DNA from: a virus | UHGV virus genome: UHGV-0179250 | Length of the DNA stretch: 26,811 nucleotides | Direction: 5' to 3' (one strand) | Shown: positions 682 to 26,811 of the stretch, one piece after another | Numbering within the stretch: position 1 is the first letter of the stretch | Layout: every line of letters begins with the position of its first letter | Notes under the pieces: model-generated | What the model was told of the DNA's origin: nothing | Database searches by the model: none | What the model saw: only the letters and a program-made list of their open reading frames with translations | Made by a program: the position numbers and the translations under genes

Positions 682-754
682 GCCGATTTAACTTAGCAGA
701 CAAAGCAACTGACTTGTAATCACCGGGTCGCCAGTTCGATTCCGGTAATCGGCA
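682..754 (+). tRNA. Degenerate tRNA-Thr(UGU)-like element, probably a pseudo-tRNA
   Basis: Perfect 7-bp acceptor stem (GCCGATT/AATCGGC), TTCGATT T-loop and CTTGTAA anticodon loop as in enterobacterial thrU (from memory), but the anticodon stem has 2 mismatches, the D-loop lacks GG, and the 3' end is CTA not CCA. Confidence 0.4.
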
Positions 755-3457: not shown

Positions 3458-3850
3458 ATGGAAAAGAAAGAAGACAAACCAATGGTAATTGGTGCTGTGG
3501 CTGTTCCGTTTAAGTTTGAACTGTCACAACTGGTGGAGATGCGCATCAGTGATGAATGGGGTGAGGTTAAAGCTCGCGCGCAGTATGCGGATGGCGAAAA
3601 CCAGTACTTGATCCACTACAAGGCTGCTGATGGTCGCGCCACAACGGCGTGGTTTGGTGAGTCAATGCTGGAAGCAACAGAAGATGATCGCCATCCGGGC
3701 TGTCCGGTATTTGCCGGTATGAAATTACCGGAAGGTGCAGTTGAACTGCAGCCGGGTGAGGTGTTCGTAATGTCAGAAGTCATTGATGGCAAACCGCAGT
3801 ATTCACGTATTGAAACTAACGGCAAGGACGTTTGTCTGGTTAGCAAGTAA
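3458..3850 (+). CDS. Hypothetical acidic protein, 130 aa (accessory/moron candidate)
   Basis: Strong RBS AGGAGAAGATA before the ATG at 3458; soluble, acidic; no recognisable motif; lies between the lysis and packaging modules. Confidence 0.5.
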   Translation: MEKKEDKPMVIGAVAVPFKFELSQLVEMRISDEWGEVKARAQYADGENQYLIHYKAADGRATTAWFGESMLEATEDDRHPGCPVFAGMKLPEGAVELQPGEVFVMSEVIDGKPQYSRIETNGKDVCLVSK

Positions 3851-3893: not shown

Positions 3894-4106
3894 TTAGTTA
3901 TCTTTTATGAATCCGTTAACGGCCCATCCGACAAGTCTGAGTATGCCGTATGTCAGTAAGGCACATACCAGGGAAACTAATACAGCAAATAACGAGATTC
4001 CTGTACCAGCACCTGTTAATAAAAAGAAACCAAAGCTCAACATCAACACCAAAATAGCCAACAGAACGCCTGTCCGGTGAAATCCTTTTGAAATAGTATT
4101 TTTCAT
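3894..4106 (-). CDS. Small two-helix membrane protein (70 aa) encoded antisense to the late operon; moron candidate
   Basis: Only minus-strand ORF in a gap between + strand genes; two hydrophobic helices; GGAGA RBS; own promoter-like element upstream. Confidence 0.5.
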   Translation of the reverse strand: MKNTISKGFHRTGVLLAILVLMLSFGFFLLTGAGTGISLFAVLVSLVCALLTYGILRLVGWAVNGFIKDN

Positions 4107-4167: not shown

Positions 4168-4516
4168 GCCATCACGGATCCCCCGCGCATGCCGTAAGCG
4201 AGGCTGTGCAGGCACAACGACAGACAGTTCTGGCTACTGCGATAAACATCGTGGTGAAGGCTGGGCACAGCACCAGCGCGGACTGAGCCGCCACCAGCGT
4301 GGCTATGGCTCAAAATGGACGCTGATTCGTGCCCGTATTCTGAAGCGTGATAAAGGTTTGTGCCAGTTGTGCCTTCTGGATGGCGTGGTCAGCGAGGCGA
4401 GAACCGTTGACCACATCATCCCGAAAGCTCGCGGTGGTACGGACGCAGACAGTAACCTGCAGAGCCTGTGCTGGCCCTGCCATAAAGCGAAAACAGCGCG
4501 CGAACGAATAAAGTGA
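4166..4516 (+). CDS. HNH endonuclease (terminase-associated, HK97 gp74-like)
   Basis: Cys-rich N-terminus plus DHIIPKARGG...N...LCWPCH HNH motif; position immediately upstream of the small terminase gene. Confidence 0.8.
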   Translation: MPSRIPRACRKRGCAGTTTDSSGYCDKHRGEGWAQHQRGLSRHQRGYGSKWTLIRARILKRDKGLCQLCLLDGVVSEARTVDHIIPKARGGTDADSNLQSLCWPCHKAKTARERIK

Positions 4517-20908: not shown

Positions 20909-21498
20909 TGGATACGTTACAGGATGATTATACAAAATTGTTATATGGCCTGATGCCTCCGGGGCCTGCATGGTCAGATACTGACGGCGTACTTGACGGT
21001 CTGGCACCATCGCTTGTGCGTGTTCACCAGCGGGCTGATGAACTGGTGATTGAAATCGATCCCGGTCAGTCAACAGAGCTGATTGAACGTTATGAAGAAT
21101 TGTATGGTTTGCCTGACACCTGTTCCCCTGTCGGGAGTCAGACATTACGCCAGCGTCAGCAACGGCTGGAAGCAAAAGCTAATGTAGCTGGCGGCATAAA
21201 TGAGCAGTTTTTTCTGGATCAGCTTGAGGCACTGGGATATACCGGCGTGACGATCGAACAGTTCCAGAATCTGGACGCAAGCCCAGATCCGGAATGGGGA
21301 GATCGCTGGCGTTATTTCTGGCGTGTGACGTTACCAGTGGATGCTGGCGCTCAGTGGCAGACATGTACGGATGCCTGCAACACACCGATTCGGACGTGGG
21401 GTGATACGATTGCGGAGTGCGTGATTAATAAATTATGTCCGTCGCATACCGTTGTTTTATTTTCCTATCCAGATGAGGCTGAAGATGCACAGGATTGA
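20908..21498 (+). CDS. Baseplate/tail protein, Mu gp48-like (DUF2313 / YmfQ-like)
   Basis: 196 aa; immediately precedes the tail-fibre gene. Confidence 0.65.
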   Translation: MDTLQDDYTKLLYGLMPPGPAWSDTDGVLDGLAPSLVRVHQRADELVIEIDPGQSTELIERYEELYGLPDTCSPVGSQTLRQRQQRLEAKANVAGGINEQFFLDQLEALGYTGVTIEQFQNLDASPDPEWGDRWRYFWRVTLPVDAGAQWQTCTDACNTPIRTWGDTIAECVINKLCPSHTVVLFSYPDEAEDAQD

Positions 21499-22504
21499 TA
21501 CGCTGACTGCGGTAAAAGATAAGTTTGGTCCGGGTAAGAACGGATTTACTGACGGAAATATTCGGACGGGGCGTCTTGCCACCTGGCTGAACAGTGCCAT
21601 GTGGGATGCCATTCAGGAGGAAATGTGCGCCGTTATTGAGAGGGCCGGGATAGAACTGAATAAAGAAGAACACGATCAGCTATATAAAGCCATATTGTTG
21701 CTGGCAGGTGGTGTGATTAACGAAGTGGCATTGCTGGCAAAAAATAATCTTTCGGATGTGGAAGACAAGGATGAGGCTGTTGAAAACCTCGGATTAAAAC
21801 CCACGGTGGACAAGGCAAAAAATGCCGTTCAGCGTGATGGTGACACCATGACCGGAGAACTAAAAATCCGTGGTGTTAATGCGCTGAGGATTTTCAACGA
21901 CGCTTTTGGCCTGATTTTTCGTCGTTCGGAAGAGTTCCTGCACCTTATCCCTACCAGTGAAGGTCAGGGCGAAAACGGTGATATCGGCCCATTAAGGCCA
22001 TTTGCTATAAATCTGAGAACAGGTGCTATATCTGTCAGCCACGGGGCCAAAATTGATGGTGGGCTGGCGCTTGGTACAGATAACGCGCTGGGTGGAAACT
22101 CAATTGCTTTCGGGGATAACGATACCGGCCTGAAACAGAATGGTGATGGCCTGCTGGATGTTTATGCCAATAGCGTGCATGTGTTGCGTTTTCAGGCTGG
22201 CAGTATCCAGAGTAATAAACCTGTAAACGTTACCGGGCGGGTAACACCGTCAGACTACGGAAACTTTGATGCCCGTTACCAGACCAAATCAGGGGGCGTG
22301 CAGAATTTTCAGTACACCAGTGAGGTGTTTTACAACCCTGGTGGGAATGAGCGCAGCTGGACGTTTCGGGCACCTTCTGGTTGTGTTTTGTCAGGCATTA
22401 ATGTTCAGGACACTGGCAGTAACTCTGCAGATAATATCGGTGGCGTGTATTACAAACAGGCTCAGATTTATATCAATGGTGCATGGCGATCCGTATCAGG
22501 TTAA
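21485..22504 (+). CDS. Tail fibre protein (short fibre, Mu gpS position)
   Basis: About 339 aa, Gly/Asn-rich C-terminus; start MHRIDTL with GAGG RBS; followed by a Tfa chaperone. Confidence 0.65.
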   Translation: MHRIDTLTAVKDKFGPGKNGFTDGNIRTGRLATWLNSAMWDAIQEEMCAVIERAGIELNKEEHDQLYKAILLLAGGVINEVALLAKNNLSDVEDKDEAVENLGLKPTVDKAKNAVQRDGDTMTGELKIRGVNALRIFNDAFGLIFRRSEEFLHLIPTSEGQGENGDIGPLRPFAINLRTGAISVSHGAKIDGGLALGTDNALGGNSIAFGDNDTGLKQNGDGLLDVYANSVHVLRFQAGSIQSNKPVNVTGRVTPSDYGNFDARYQTKSGGVQNFQYTSEVFYNPGGNERSWTFRAPSGCVLSGINVQDTGSNSADNIGGVYYKQAQIYINGAWRSVSG

Positions 22505-22517
22505 TTAAGGAGAAATA

Positions 22518-23048
22518 ATGGAACTCGTAAACGTTACGCGTTACTACCCTGAAGATATGCCTTATGGTGAAGGCATTCAGTATTTCCGTAGTGAAGACGG
22601 GCAGGATTTTTATGAATCACTGGATAAGTTCACGAAGAAATACAAGCTGTGCACGCATCCTGAAACCGGCATTATTTATTCCATGGCGGAAGATGTATCC
22701 CGCCTTTATCCCGTTGGTTTTACCATTGTGGAAGTGGATGAACTACCGGAAGGATTTTGCATTGAAGCCCGCTGGTATTATAAAGACGGTGAAGTGCTGC
22801 CGGTCCCTGTTGACTACCGGCAGCAGGCAGAGTCGGAGCGTGCACGTCTTACTGCGATTGCCGAACGGGAAATATCCGATAAGAAGACGGATTTACTTCT
22901 GGGAATCATCAGTGATGAAGAAAAAGAAAAGCTGACAGCCTGGCGCATTTACGCGAAATCGCTGCAGGCGATGGATTTCAGCACCATCACTGATAAAGTC
23001 TCATATAACGCCATTGAATGGCCCGTCTCTCCGGAAGCCTCTTCCTGA
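22518..23048 (+). CDS. Tail fibre assembly protein (Tfa family)
   Basis: 176 aa ending ...AIEWPVSPEASS, the C-terminal signature of Tfa/gpG-type chaperones; strong RBS. Confidence 0.75.
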   Translation: MELVNVTRYYPEDMPYGEGIQYFRSEDGQDFYESLDKFTKKYKLCTHPETGIIYSMAEDVSRLYPVGFTIVEVDELPEGFCIEARWYYKDGEVLPVPVDYRQQAESERARLTAIAEREISDKKTDLLLGIISDEEKEKLTAWRIYAKSLQAMDFSTITDKVSYNAIEWPVSPEASS

Positions 23049-23071
23049 TTTAATTTATCGCGAGAAAAACT

Positions 23072-25993
23072 ATGTCTGTAGTGATATCAGGTGCGCTGAT
23101 TGATGGCGCAGGCATCCCCATGTCCGGATGCCACATAATTCTGAAATCCCGGGTAAACACGTCAGAAGTGGTGATGCGCACAGTTGCTGATGTGGTGACA
23201 GGAAACTGTGGCGAGTACTGTTTTAAGGCGCAGACCGGAAAATACTGCGTATATCTGAAACAGGACTGGCGCGACGAGTACTGTGTTGGCGACATTGCCG
23301 TATACGACGATTCAAAGCCCGGCACGCTGAACGACTTTCTGACTGCCCTTGATGAAGGCGACCTCAAACCCGACGTGGTGAAACGCTTCGAAGAAATGTT
23401 GGCGCAGGCGCAGCAGAGCGCGGAAGCGGCAGCGGAAAGCGAACGACAGTCCGGGCAACACGCAGCTGATGCGCAGAAGATTAAGGATGATTGCCAGATG
23501 CTGGCGGATAACGTACAGCAGAATGCAGAAGCCGTTGCCGAAGATAAACAGCGCGTTGCACAGCTGGCCTCAGAAGTTGAGCAGAACGCCGGGCAGGTAC
23601 AGCAGGGTGTGCAGAGTGTTACAGATGCAGTAAAGCAGGCTCAACAGGCAGCAGATGACTCAGCATCCAGCGCAGAGGAATCAAAAAACAATGCGGATAA
23701 CGCCGCCCTGAGCGAGCAGAATGCGAAAAGTTGCGCTGATAATGCTGCCGGAAGTGCACAGCAGACCGCACAGGATGTGAAGGCAACCGCAGCGGCGCGT
23801 GATGATGCAGAGCGTTTTGCTGATGAAGCCAGAAAGAATGCGGTTGCAACGGCTGCGGACAGGGAATCCACTGCGGAGGATGCGAAACAAACCGGTCAGA
23901 ATGCCGCCGCGGCCGCCATAAGTGCTCAGGAGGCGAAAGACGCGGCCGGGCATGTGCAGGGATTCATTCATGACCACCTTTCAGTATCAACCCGTTATTC
24001 GGTAACAGAGGCGAACCTTCAGCTACAGGCGTTGAGAATAAACAGCGGGCGCTACGAGGGGCTGTGGCGCTACCTGAATGCGAACGGTGGTATCAACTGG
24101 TATTTGCTGTTTCTTGCCGTGTATGAAAGTGAAGGAAAATGCTTTTCCCTCAGTGACCGTATGACAATTTGCGAAAAGGCGTTAAGACTGGGGCTTGTGG
24201 TTCCGTTTATGACCAGTTGCCGTTATGAAGCCGGGCAGCGCCTGACAATAAACGGCACGCTTTTTTTTGTTAATATCGCGGGCACCACCGGGGAAACGTT
24301 GCCTGATATCAGCTCTGTAGCCCCCGGAGATTTTGTCCGGACCGGCTCCGCTGTGCTGGAGTGCCTGAAAAGCCCCTCAAACCGAATCCCGGCTGCATGG
24401 CAGTATTTTTTTCTGGATGTGGCTCCGGATTTGTATACCCCCGTTGCGCCGGACTCCACGGACAGCTACCCGGCGCTCTGGTTCGCCTGCATTGCTGAAT
24501 TTGCGGACAGTGCCTGGTTACAGGAGCCAGCCGGAATCGGCGGGTCCAGCCGCTGGGAAATCATAAAACAGGTGGCAAAGTTCAATATCGTTGCTGAAAT
24601 AAATCCGGTGGCCAGTCTGGTAAACGTATTCCAGCACAATCTTGCACCCGGTGACCGGGCTTATGCACAGTGTTTTTGTCAGGATAACGCAGAGGTTTAT
24701 GCTGGTTTACGTGCACTGAAAACACTGGCTGACCTTGCCGGAGATACCACTGCTGCAACTGAATATACCGCTGCCATGAAAACCATCAGGGCTGGCCTGC
24801 TTGCGTTGTTTGTACCTGAACAAAAACGGTTCCTGACGTATTACAACGAGACGGATTACCCGGCAGAGCCTGGTGAAGGGCGTTTTGTTGATAAGGACCG
24901 TTTTTCTGTGGCCCCGTGGCGCTTTGGGGTGCTGGAAACACAGGAAGAAGTGGAACGGTACGGCAGGCAGGTTCTGGACGCCATACAGAGTGCTTACCCG
25001 GACCTGTTCACGGCAAATTACGACGGCATTGATACGTTTGCCATGAGTGATTTTTTTGCTTTTGTGGCAAAGGTTACCACTTCTCAGACGGCAGCCACGG
25101 CTGCCATCAGACGCCTGCAAATCCGGGCGACATCTGCCGTCACGGTGGCCGACGTTGCCGCCGCCATATCCGTTACAGCCTGGGGAAAAATCCCACAGTT
25201 TCGTGCCTGTGATTTTATGCGCATCAACGGGCATTCCGTGCTCGGAGGGGGCGATATCACGCTGGGCGCGGCGGCCACAATGGAGCCACAGAGTGATATT
25301 CGCGACAGGACGGAAGGCAGGCTGGCACTTCCCGATGCCTTCGGTTTTGGGCGTATATTCAACACAAACGAAACTGTCCGCTTTGACTCAGAAAATGATT
25401 TTCTGGTGTGGGTAAAACAGGTCACGCCAGGAGAATATTTTGTTGAGGGTGGCAATAAAATTATACCCAATGTGCTGTTCAGCGGGATTGTCAGTATTCG
25501 GTGGATTGAGTCCAGATATGCCACACCGAGTCCGATAAATACAGCAAAGGCGATTATTTTCTATGGTGTTAATGGCCACATTTATTACAACCGCTACTGG
25601 ACCACAGGAAATGGTTATCTCATTGACTGGGAATCACTGAAGGTAACCTCGCAGGACATTATTGCTCTTCTGTCCGGCCTTGCTCCCGGAGCTACAGATA
25701 CCTGGTACGGCACTGGCAGCCTGATACTGGCGGCATATAACGGCCAGGGAAACGCAGACCCGGACCGCAGAATAAAGCGAGGTTACAGCTATCCTGGGTC
25801 ACGTCTGAGTGCGGTTGAATTGATGTGTTACGGTACGACCGGGACCGGGGTTAAATACAACGGCAGTGTTTCTGTGTATGTTCAGGGTTCCGGTGGCGGA
25901 ATGCCAGGCACATACCGGGCATTGTCGGGGAATGGACTGGGGTCTGCCGGTTCCGCCAGCGCCATGATTGGTCTGTTTATACGAGTTGCGTAG
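23072..25993 (+). CDS. Side tail fibre (lambda Stf-like N-terminal domain, Ala/Gln-rich coiled coil, large divergent C-terminal domain)
   Basis: N-terminus MSVVISGALIDGAGIPMSGCHIILKSRVNTSEV...DDSKPGTLNDFL parallels the lambda Stf N-terminal domain (from memory); about 180-aa Ala/Gln-rich repeat segment; C-terminal ~650 aa unrecognised. Confidence 0.75.
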   Translation: MSVVISGALIDGAGIPMSGCHIILKSRVNTSEVVMRTVADVVTGNCGEYCFKAQTGKYCVYLKQDWRDEYCVGDIAVYDDSKPGTLNDFLTALDEGDLKPDVVKRFEEMLAQAQQSAEAAAESERQSGQHAADAQKIKDDCQMLADNVQQNAEAVAEDKQRVAQLASEVEQNAGQVQQGVQSVTDAVKQAQQAADDSASSAEESKNNADNAALSEQNAKSCADNAAGSAQQTAQDVKATAAARDDAERFADEARKNAVATAADRESTAEDAKQTGQNAAAAAISAQEAKDAAGHVQGFIHDHLSVSTRYSVTEANLQLQALRINSGRYEGLWRYLNANGGINWYLLFLAVYESEGKCFSLSDRMTICEKALRLGLVVPFMTSCRYEAGQRLTINGTLFFVNIAGTTGETLPDISSVAPGDFVRTGSAVLECLKSPSNRIPAAWQYFFLDVAPDLYTPVAPDSTDSYPALWFACIAEFADSAWLQEPAGIGGSSRWEIIKQVAKFNIVAEINPVASLVNVFQHNLAPGDRAYAQCFCQDNAEVYAGLRALKTLADLAGDTTAATEYTAAMKTIRAGLLALFVPEQKRFLTYYNETDYPAEPGEGRFVDKDRFSVAPWRFGVLETQEEVERYGRQVLDAIQSAYPDLFTANYDGIDTFAMSDFFAFVAKVTTSQTAATAAIRRLQIRATSAVTVADVAAAISVTAWGKIPQFRACDFMRINGHSVLGGGDITLGAAATMEPQSDIRDRTEGRLALPDAFGFGRIFNTNETVRFDSENDFLVWVKQVTPGEYFVEGGNKIIPNVLFSGIVSIRWIESRYATPSPINTAKAIIFYGVNGHIYYNRYWTTGNGYLIDWESLKVTSQDIIALLSGLAPGATDTWYGTGSLILAAYNGQGNADPDRRIKRGYSYPGSRLSAVELMCYGTTGTGVKYNGSVSVYVQGSGGGMPGTYRALSGNGLGSAGSASAMIGLFIRVA

Positions 25994-26000
25994 GTGATTT

Positions 26001-26564
26001 ATGGAAGTAAAAAAAATCGAAAATGCGCGCTGGCTGGAAAGCGGCGCGATTGACTGCGACGTATTGTTTGAGGGGATGGACGAGGCCCTGCCGTATACAG
26101 CGACAGCAGACGATACCGCACCGACGGGCCAGCAAATCTGGCAGGAACTGCAAAGTGGCAAATGGGGTGAAATCGCCCCGTTTACAGTCACGCCTGAACT
26201 TATCGCAGCGGCAAAAGATGCCAAAAAGATGGAAATCGAGGCGTGGCGCACAGAACAGGAGGCACTGCCGTTCACGTTCGAATGGAATGGTCGCACCTGG
26301 AACGCTGGCCCCGACTCAATGGCTCGTCTTTATCCGGTGGTAATGGCTGCAAAATCTGATACGGCACGAACCGCCCTTGCGTGGGGCGACGCTGATAATC
26401 AACAGGTGAAACTGTCGATGCCGGAACTGGAAGAACTGGCAGCCGCGATGGCGCAGGCGCAGGTCGATCGCAACGCCGAGATTTATCGCCGTCAGCGAGA
26501 GATGAAGGATGAACTGAATAATCTGGAGGATTTGGCTTCAGTTCGAGTGTTTGACGTTACGTAA
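26001..26564 (+). CDS. Putative tail fibre chaperone-like protein (DUF4376-like)
   Basis: 187 aa directly after the large fibre gene; lacks the Tfa C-terminal EWP signature; motifs EAWRTEQEALPFTFEWNGRTWNAGPDS and RRQREMKDEL resemble DUF4376 proteins as I recall them. Confidence 0.45.
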   Translation: MEVKKIENARWLESGAIDCDVLFEGMDEALPYTATADDTAPTGQQIWQELQSGKWGEIAPFTVTPELIAAAKDAKKMEIEAWRTEQEALPFTFEWNGRTWNAGPDSMARLYPVVMAAKSDTARTALAWGDADNQQVKLSMPELEELAAAMAQAQVDRNAEIYRRQREMKDELNNLEDLASVRVFDVT

Positions 26565-26615
26565 TTGGTAAGTATGCATCATGCTGAATTGTTACCCTTA
26601 GTTACAAACAGAAAA

Positions 26616-26646
26616 GCCTCTGACTTCATAATCAGAGGCTTTTTTG
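26616..26646. terminator. Intrinsic terminator at the end of the fibre operon (bidirectional-looking)
   Basis: GCCTCTGA/TCAGAGGC 8-bp stem, 8-nt loop, then TTTTTTG on + strand; T-rich on the complement as well. Confidence 0.6.
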
Positions 26647-26763
26647 AAATGCACGTGCATTCTGCGTGTATATTTTTGTCTTTTTCTGGTCAGAACGCTG
26701 TCTGGTCAGTGTCCGTAAGTGACTGTTTTTATAGTCTCTGTCCGGTTGTGGTCCTATCAAAAG

Positions 26764-26811
26764 TGGTGGAGCTGGCGGGAGTTGAACCCGCGTCCGAAAT
26801 TCCTACATCCT
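26764..26811 (-). ncRNA. ssrA: tmRNA (ssrA) 3' end, partial; gene continues beyond the right window edge
   Basis: Reverse complement reads AGGATGTAGGAATTTCGGACGCGGGTTCAACTCCCGCCAGCTCCACCA, matching the 3' T-arm/acceptor/CCA end of enterobacterial tmRNA as I recall it. Confidence 0.8.

Follow-up and report, generated by a model that had tools for sequence, protein, structure and literature searches.

A probable fibre-side prophage junction at the 3' end of the tmRNA gene ssrA

Introduction

The right end of the virus genome UHGV-0179250 brings tail-fibre genes next to the 3' end of the tmRNA gene ssrA. The stretch analysed here is 26,811 nucleotides long and is called the window. The last phage gene in it is separated from ssrA by a non-coding spacer of about 200 nt, which contains a palindrome and a short direct repeat. 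How do fibre genes, and not an integrase gene, come to lie beside ssrA, and to which genome does the spacer belong? The original prediction, which was made from the letters of the window, regarded this layout as unusual. It considered that the repeats could be binding sites for an integrase or for host factors, or that the prophage could be rearranged or without an integrase.

ssrA is a listed insertion site of Stx phages, for which the paper on the prophage CP-1639 is cited (PMC8065619). In a survey of Klebsiella, ssrA was among the top-used integration sites, and the repeats of ssrA islands were mostly the last 36 nt of the gene (bioRxiv 10.1101/2020.11.02.365908).

Results

The window ends in the 3' end of ssrA

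The features of the window are collected in Table 1. Its final 48 nt are the minus-strand 3' end of ssrA, with the CCA end (26764) toward the prophage, as had been predicted. The match to RF00023 scored 53.4 bits against a gathering threshold of 47 and covered model positions 326-374, the last 49 of the model; the end of the window truncates the RNA on its 5' side. The genes before the junction are the fibre end of the phage, which also agrees with the prediction, and consist of a tail-fibre gene and a gene for a DUF4376 protein.

Table 1. Coordinates of the features in the window (a point in the strand column, no strand assigned)
Feature	Position	Strand	Basis
tRNA-Thr(UGU)	682-754		Rfam only, missed by ARAGORN
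tRNA-Gly(UCC)	761-835
973-aa tail fibre	23072-25993	+	Pfam phage_tail_N, E = 2e-61
187-aa DUF4376 protein, putative tail-fibre assembly, last prophage gene	26001-26564	+	Pfam PF14301, E = 3e-16
Fibre-side attP arm, about 175 nt, equivalent to the P arm of lambda	26589-26763	.	Comparison with free phages
Bidirectional intrinsic terminator hairpin, 12-bp stem	26609-26646	.	Terminator scan, folding, covariation
Perfect 14-bp palindrome AATGCACGTGCATT	26648-26661	.
Second stem-loop, followed by ATTTTTGTCTTTTT; overlaps the palindrome and the hexamers	26649-26671	+	Terminator scan, MFE structure
29-nt block CACGTGCATTCTGCGTGTATATTTTTGTC with two direct hexamers, candidate arm-type integrase sites	26652-26680	.
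Direct repeat TCTGGTCAG	26685-26693 and 26701-26709	.
att core identity block, 27 nt, recurs as displaced ssrA 3' fragment at the int end of relatives	26764-26790	.
ssrA (tmRNA) 3' terminal 48 nt: T arm, acceptor 3' strand, CCA	26764-26811	-	Rfam RF00023

A protein identical to the 187-aa protein is encoded in 24 contigs, and four of the six contigs listed (L002-L005) extend to the right of the junction. L002, which starts at about window position 3719 (in the coordinates of the record), has the junction of the window and carries a tmRNA of 363 nt with the tag ANDENYALAA (ARAGORN). In L003-L005, the junction is likewise identical to that of the window, the ssrA 3' end is the same, and smpB follows shortly past it. 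The genes smpB, ratA, bamE and recN lie beyond ssrA in all four contigs. ssrA is full length in the contigs with the identical junction, not a short 3' fragment, and the window itself ends 48 nt into the gene. A fragment displaced by the same insertion would turn its 5' end to the prophage; that the CCA end faces the prophage here is consistent with an intact ssrA. The right boundary of the prophage is the CCA end of ssrA at 26764. These contigs, together with attP and the att duplication in relatives described below, bear out the prophage-chromosome junction at the ssrA 3' end that had been proposed.

Within ssrA, position 26808 is A in the window and G in L002. Since the 27-nt core does not reach this position and either variant is found in related loci, the difference is an ordinary host polymorphism. 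Gene finders called a 59-aa ORF that runs from the spacer into ssrA in antisense (window 26649 to beyond 26811; L002 10649-10828). It was judged spurious because its C-terminal part would change between the attP and the integrated forms. A 196-aa ORF annotated through the corresponding region of phage LMessi is probably spurious too.

The spacer is shared by different phages

The spacer is almost certainly phage DNA that moves with the integration module, not host DNA. We placed the start of the conserved arm at 26589 because conservation among phages with differing last genes begins there. Of the 5426 complete E. coli genomes, only 45 have the arm. In E. coli C5, it is 99.4% identical to that of the window, yet it stands behind a lambda-like siphovirus. 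In HNSQ2209, the phage before the arm has a P2-type tail, and in 2013C-3264 and ETEC1738 the arm stands behind other lambdoid phages. It is also conserved in 38 IMG/VR contigs and in eight other enterobacterial species, and it adjoins ssrA across genera whose ssrA sequences differ. The arm alignment contains 41 distinct versions, from E. coli, the 38 IMG/VR contigs, Pseudocitrobacter, Enterobacter, Citrobacter, Trabulsiella and Erwinia. The sample was collected with a conserved 24-mer and therefore overstates the overall conservation of the arm, while the pattern inside the sample is still informative.

Free phages carry the same sequence. In LMessi, the order is the tail-fibre gene, the homologue of the arm, an ssrA-like core of 35 nt, a second non-coding arm and the 3' end of int. 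The IMG/VR contig L034 has the same attP as LMessi, and the shorter contig L038 holds the start of such an attP. In 26565-26811, the IHF consensus WATCAANNNNTTR had no match, which is still compatible with a degenerate site or with another bending protein.

In relatives, the core is duplicated and the integrase lies at the other end

The core TGGTGGAGCTGGCGGGAGTTGAACCCG was found next to int in C5 (L008, 18262-18288) and in ETEC1738 (L073, 6194-6220), in the attP of the free phage LMessi (L009, 4176-4202), and in L034 and L038. It is thus duplicated at both ends in C5 and ETEC1738, with 27 nt in each. The identity block starts at the CCA end and reaches as far as the 5' strand of the T stem; it is 27 nt long in these two prophages, and in LMessi, L034 and L038 attP shares 35-36 nt with the ssrA 3' end (to about 26798), with one mismatch. 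The crossover is probably in the T-loop at 26780-26786, between inverted halves of the T stem that would be the candidate core-type sites with the overlap.

The far end of the C5 prophage encodes a tyrosine recombinase of 390 aa on the minus strand. TGGTGGAGCTGGCGGGAGTTGAACCCG is located about 130 nt from it and is followed in tandem by an island with a P4-type integrase. In ETEC1738, the whole prophage of 43 kb lies between the copies of the 27-nt repeat, and its order is that of the window: methyltransferase, tRNA, lysis genes, P27-family terminase and HK97 head. The att duplication, with an integrase at the other end, is thus found in relatives that share the junction. The integrases of C5 and LMessi have the Pfam domains Arm-DNA-bind_2 (PF12167) and Phage_integrase (PF00589), and the 3' end of int is about 120-130 nt from the core in both. 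The integrase is 87-89% identical to those of phi467, LMessi, Cronobacter phage phiES15 and PhiR12 (PhiR12_1-5), and 66-69% identical to those of phiNP, Kp4866-6 and LLS.

Because attP is flanked by the last gene of the late operon on one side and by int on the other, integration sends the fibre genes to one junction and int to the opposite one. We infer from these relatives that the prophage of the window would have an integrase gene at its far end. The int gene of ETEC1738 is frameshifted and that of phi467 is annotated in two pieces; since int decays in these relatives, the copy in the window may be defective.

A probable bidirectional terminator lies in the arm

The first hairpin of the arm folds with z-scores of -6.5 on the plus strand and -5.5 on the minus strand, and is flanked by T-runs. 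In the 12 variants compared, pairing is kept in 92% of cells, and 5 of the 12 pairs have changes on both sides. None of 500 shuffles reached its covariation score, and slid controls collapsed. We read this hairpin as the end of the fibre operon on the plus strand. On the minus strand, it probably ends read-through from ssrA after integration.

Phased motifs recur on the other arm

The palindrome, which is perfect, and the direct repeat TCTGGTCAG are both located where the original prediction had placed them. Over the whole window, neither is remarkable: there are two perfect 14-nt palindromes against 1.9 expected, and seven overlapping 9-mer hits (five distinct) within 30 nt against 2.7 expected, both expectations being from dinucleotide shuffles. 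In the 199-nt junction alone, such a palindrome occurred in 0.85% of shuffles and such a repeat in 1.6%, in what was a post-hoc test. Therefore, what the palindrome and the repeat mean must come from relatives.

Of the 41 distinct arm sequences, which come from several genera, 38 have the central 10 bp of the palindrome, TGCACGTGCA, without any change, and the palindrome matches the inverted repeat I1 in LMessi. The 29-nt block contains the hexamers GTGCAT (26655-26660) and GTGTAT (26666-26671), which are 11 nt apart; the second is GTGCAT in most relatives, the pattern of the block being GTGCAT-N5-GTGCAT. This block is repeated directly on the int-side arm. Its two copies in LMessi (4064-4092 and 4260-4288) are 79% identical and 196 nt apart, and int-side copies are present also in C5, ETEC1738, phi467 and L034. 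In most arms of the LLS lineage, GCTCCTTT and GTATCCTTT replace GTGCAT at the same positions on both arms. L053 is an exception, with an arm of the CP-1639 type and a 69%-identical integrase. Since the block is repeated on both arms and the integrase has an arm-binding domain, arm-type integrase sites are the best reading. It is plausible that the GTGCAT hexamers bind the integrase and that the palindrome is part of the same cluster.

The direct repeat fared differently. Among the 41 arms, only those of the lineage of the window and C5 have the exact TCTGGTCAG repeat. In the others, CTCGGTCTG or TTCAGTCCG usually stands in place of the first copy, with the GTC core alone kept, and the second copy is conserved save in the CP-1639 type. 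Of the motifs proposed as binding sites, then, the palindrome region is conserved and repeated on the other arm, whereas the exact TCTGGTCAG repeat is not conserved beyond its own lineage. GTC triplets at 26678, 26689, 26700 and 26711 extend the 11-12 nt phase of the hexamers, and the int-side arm has a similar phased series of GTCC. As a guess, this GTC series might be bound by an excisionase. If all the phased sites were bound, the intasome of this ssrA-specific integrase clade might differ from that of lambda, and the arm might couple integrase binding with late termination or with the pre-tmRNA 3' trailer; we think this quite improbable.

Phage genes in the window

The window from 3 to 23581 matches the Stx2e phage phiP27 with 94.5% identity, 74% of the query being covered. 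The matching genes are those of the terminase, portal, HK97-type head, Mu-like sheath, tube and baseplate, and the late genes of the window, 26.8 kb in all, are an uninterrupted run of long ORFs. Two cassettes of a fibre and an assembly gene stand in series at 21452-26564: a 350-aa fibre with Caudo_TAP, and then the 973-aa fibre with the DUF4376 protein. The similarity to phiP27 breaks off at about 23581, inside the 973-aa fibre, which argues that the second cassette is a mosaic addition. With the junction, this cassette makes up a mosaic module of its own, and it is inserted between the att arm and the phiP27-like tail genes. At ssrA, a fibre and DUF4376 pair of the same type also closes prophages that are lambda-like or P2-tailed. 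The 973-aa fibre also has a weak match, under the Pfam cut-off, to an MGH1-like glycoside hydrolase.

At the left end, a DNA methyltransferase ORF (18-500) is cut by the start of the window, and the two phage-borne tRNA genes follow it. In phi467, the same tRNA pair adjoins stxAB; the window begins too far to the right to show the region upstream. Among complete E. coli genomes, there was no close match to the left 3.4 kb of the window or to the combination of fibre and junction. A single scan of GTDB representatives gave nine loci in eight other enterobacterial species, with none in Escherichia and no exact match. The truncated first ORF of the window had no match on record. A leftward walk by the shared holin gene gave unrelated lambdoid prophages only, because the lysis cassette is mosaic.

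Discussion

We found that the right end of the window is very probably the fibre-side junction of a temperate phage that is integrated in the 3' end of ssrA and combines phiP27-like structural genes with a lambda-like gene order. In the free phage, attP would lie between the last late gene, for fibre assembly, and the 3' end of int. It would consist of the fibre-side arm of about 175 nt (26589-26763), a copy of 27-36 nt of the ssrA 3' end and a second arm of about 130 nt. An integrase of the lambda-type tyrosine family, with an N-terminal arm-binding domain, would recombine this core with ssrA, the exchange probably occurring in the T-loop, and the core copy of the phage would restore the ssrA terminus. 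An intact ssrA would then adjoin the fibre end of the prophage. The integrase gene would go to the other extremity, about 40 kb away, beside the displaced 27-nt fragment of the host ssrA. The bidirectional terminator of the arm would close the fibre operon and most likely serve ssrA as well. The phased GTGCAT and GTC motifs, which are repeated on the other arm, are the likely arm-type sites, and the palindrome would belong to this cluster.

In lambda, attP is located between the tail fibre/b region and int, whose 3' end faces attP, so that int is at one junction of the prophage and the tail genes are at the other. The lambda integrase is heterobivalent, and its arm-type sites lie on both arms with a spacing of about one helical turn. 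The junction of the window differs from that of lambda in its target, which is the end of an RNA gene, where lambda uses the intergenic site at gal-bio. The ssrA phages have 27-36 nt of core identity against 15 in lambda, and the arm motifs differ. The att arm of lambda is IHF-dependent, whereas that of the window has no match to the IHF consensus.

Among the closest described cases is CP-1639, a cryptic Stx1 prophage of E. coli O111 (AJ304858; Creuzburg et al. 2005, cited in PMC8065619), which is likewise integrated at the 3' end of ssrA. Its record has the order tail fibre genes, dinI, ssrA and smpB; its late end faces ssrA, as in the window, and its ssrA is intact. Its arm is homologous to that of the window, with 80.8% identity over 202 nt, including TGCACGTGCA and the position of the terminator. 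CP-1639 differs in that it is a lambda-like siphovirus with stx1 and that its last gene is dinI, not that of a DUF4376 protein. The stem sequence of its hairpin also differs from that of the window, with compensatory changes.

In free phages of the same integrase clade, attP includes the 3' end of ssrA and has the late genes on one side and int on the other. The integrases of LMessi, phiES15, PhiR12_1-5, phi467, LLS, phiNP and Kp4866-6 all have the arm-binding and the catalytic domain. For LLS, integration in the ssrA 3' end was deduced, with the gene left functional, and 29 bp of identity to that end mark its deduced attP; an integrase nearly identical to that of LLS belongs to a prophage integrated in ssrA (PMC12315714). 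These free phages differ from the phage of the window in their structural modules, and the LLS-type arms have other repeated motifs and an extra gene between int and attP. The layout of the window is thus ordinary and was already known for other ssrA phages, namely CP-1639 (2005) and LLS (2025). The order of fibre, attP and int in LMessi and the record of CP-1639 speak against its being unusual. The layout with int directly beside ssrA, which the original prediction had expected, is that of CP4-57-type islands. CP4-57 and the P4-type islands of E. coli K-12 use the same target, and they also supply sequence and a terminator downstream of ssrA. The CP4-57-type integrase is unrelated, having 17% identity to that of LLS (PMC12315714). 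In C5 and phi467, a CP4-57-like island is located distal to the prophage, in tandem with it.

Three other origins of the junction should be weighed. If the element were rearranged or without an integrase, its int end would have been lost or inverted, and the fibre genes would adjoin ssrA as a result. The far end of the window's copy lies outside the window, the integrases of relatives decay as described above, and ssrA loci bear scars such as an orphan LLS-type arm in ETEC1738 and a short remnant in L041; all of this would fit such an event. However, the junction is base for base the canonical product of attP and ssrA, which recurs in 45 genomes of E. coli and in many further hosts, and the late genes of the window are an unbroken series of long ORFs. 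The position of attP alone brings the fibre genes to ssrA without any rearrangement, and we therefore consider a rearranged or integrase-less element unlikely. Alternatively, the window could hold only a displaced ssrA fragment in a tandem array, with another element before the intact gene. Such arrays exist with the same arm (L021, L022 and L032; L051), but the 48 nt of the window track ssrA past the point where the arrays diverge (CTACATCCT vs CTACATACC), and L002-L005, with the identical fibre-assembly protein, run on into a full ssrA and smpB. This makes a tandem array very improbable here. Finally, the 200-nt spacer could be native host DNA past ssrA, with the prophage boundary at the fibre gene. 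Nothing but its non-coding nature favours this. The spacer is missing from 99% of complete E. coli genomes, is found in free phage genomes between the fibre genes and int, and adjoins ssrA in different genera with different ssrA sequences. Among the loci examined, the 175-nt arm was not seen downstream of ssrA without a prophage or an island. We give host DNA next to no credence, and insertion by way of an attP that lies beside the fibre genes is the reading that we follow.

A further alternative concerns the palindrome region, which may be mainly a second intrinsic terminator, acting as an RNA hairpin on the plus strand, and not an integrase site. The terminator scan gives the second stem-loop nine pairs including G-T, a T-run follows it, and arms of the LMessi type have a perfect stem of 8 bp (TGCACGTG/CACGTGCA). 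Seven of the eight one-sided changes in the 41-arm alignment keep a G.U pair on the plus strand (our own count), and Erwinia has one compensatory double change from C-G to T-A. The extra inverted half-site that makes both the palindrome and the second hairpin is found only on the fibre-side arm, which faces the late operon. On the other hand, the int-side arm also carries the hexamers with their flank and is unable to form the hairpin, and a strong terminator is already located directly upstream. The count of wobble pairs is also weak because the sequences are closely related (p would be about 0.04 were the changes independent). Since most one-sided changes keep G.U on the plus strand, a back-up terminator is a live alternative, perhaps as an additional role, and the two roles can coexist. 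That termination is the main role seems to us possible but somewhat doubtful, and arm-type integrase binding is preferred.

The fibre-side junction would imply that at least the last 27 bases of the host tmRNA gene, and the terminator downstream of it, are supplied by the phage. The segment 26589-26790 would be one half of a portable attachment module that is common to very different Enterobacterales phages. The conserved arm sequence is a convenient marker for prophages of this integrase clade at ssrA, including Stx phages. Past annotation, the finding matters little, as this kind of junction was described previously.

Several loci with the arm carry scars or later insertions, which separate the prophage from ssrA. 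In L051, the arm is followed by 15 nt of ssrA, an island of 9.8 kb and a P4-like integrase; the 15 nt that remain suggest that the crossover of the P4-type island is nearer to the 3' end. In L021, L022 and L032, the arm is followed by an ssrA fragment of 45 nt and then by another element. L027 and L052 are, like L051 and these three, loci in which the arm is not followed by the full ssrA end, and in L018, L062, L042 and L056 unrelated sequence follows the conserved arm. The orphan LLS-type att arm of ETEC1738, which has no prophage, is located at about 6080-6220 of L073, to the left of the 27-nt fragment. It appears to be the scar of an earlier, different ssrA prophage beside ypjA. Such traffic is typical of ssrA, which is well known as a hotspot of integration.
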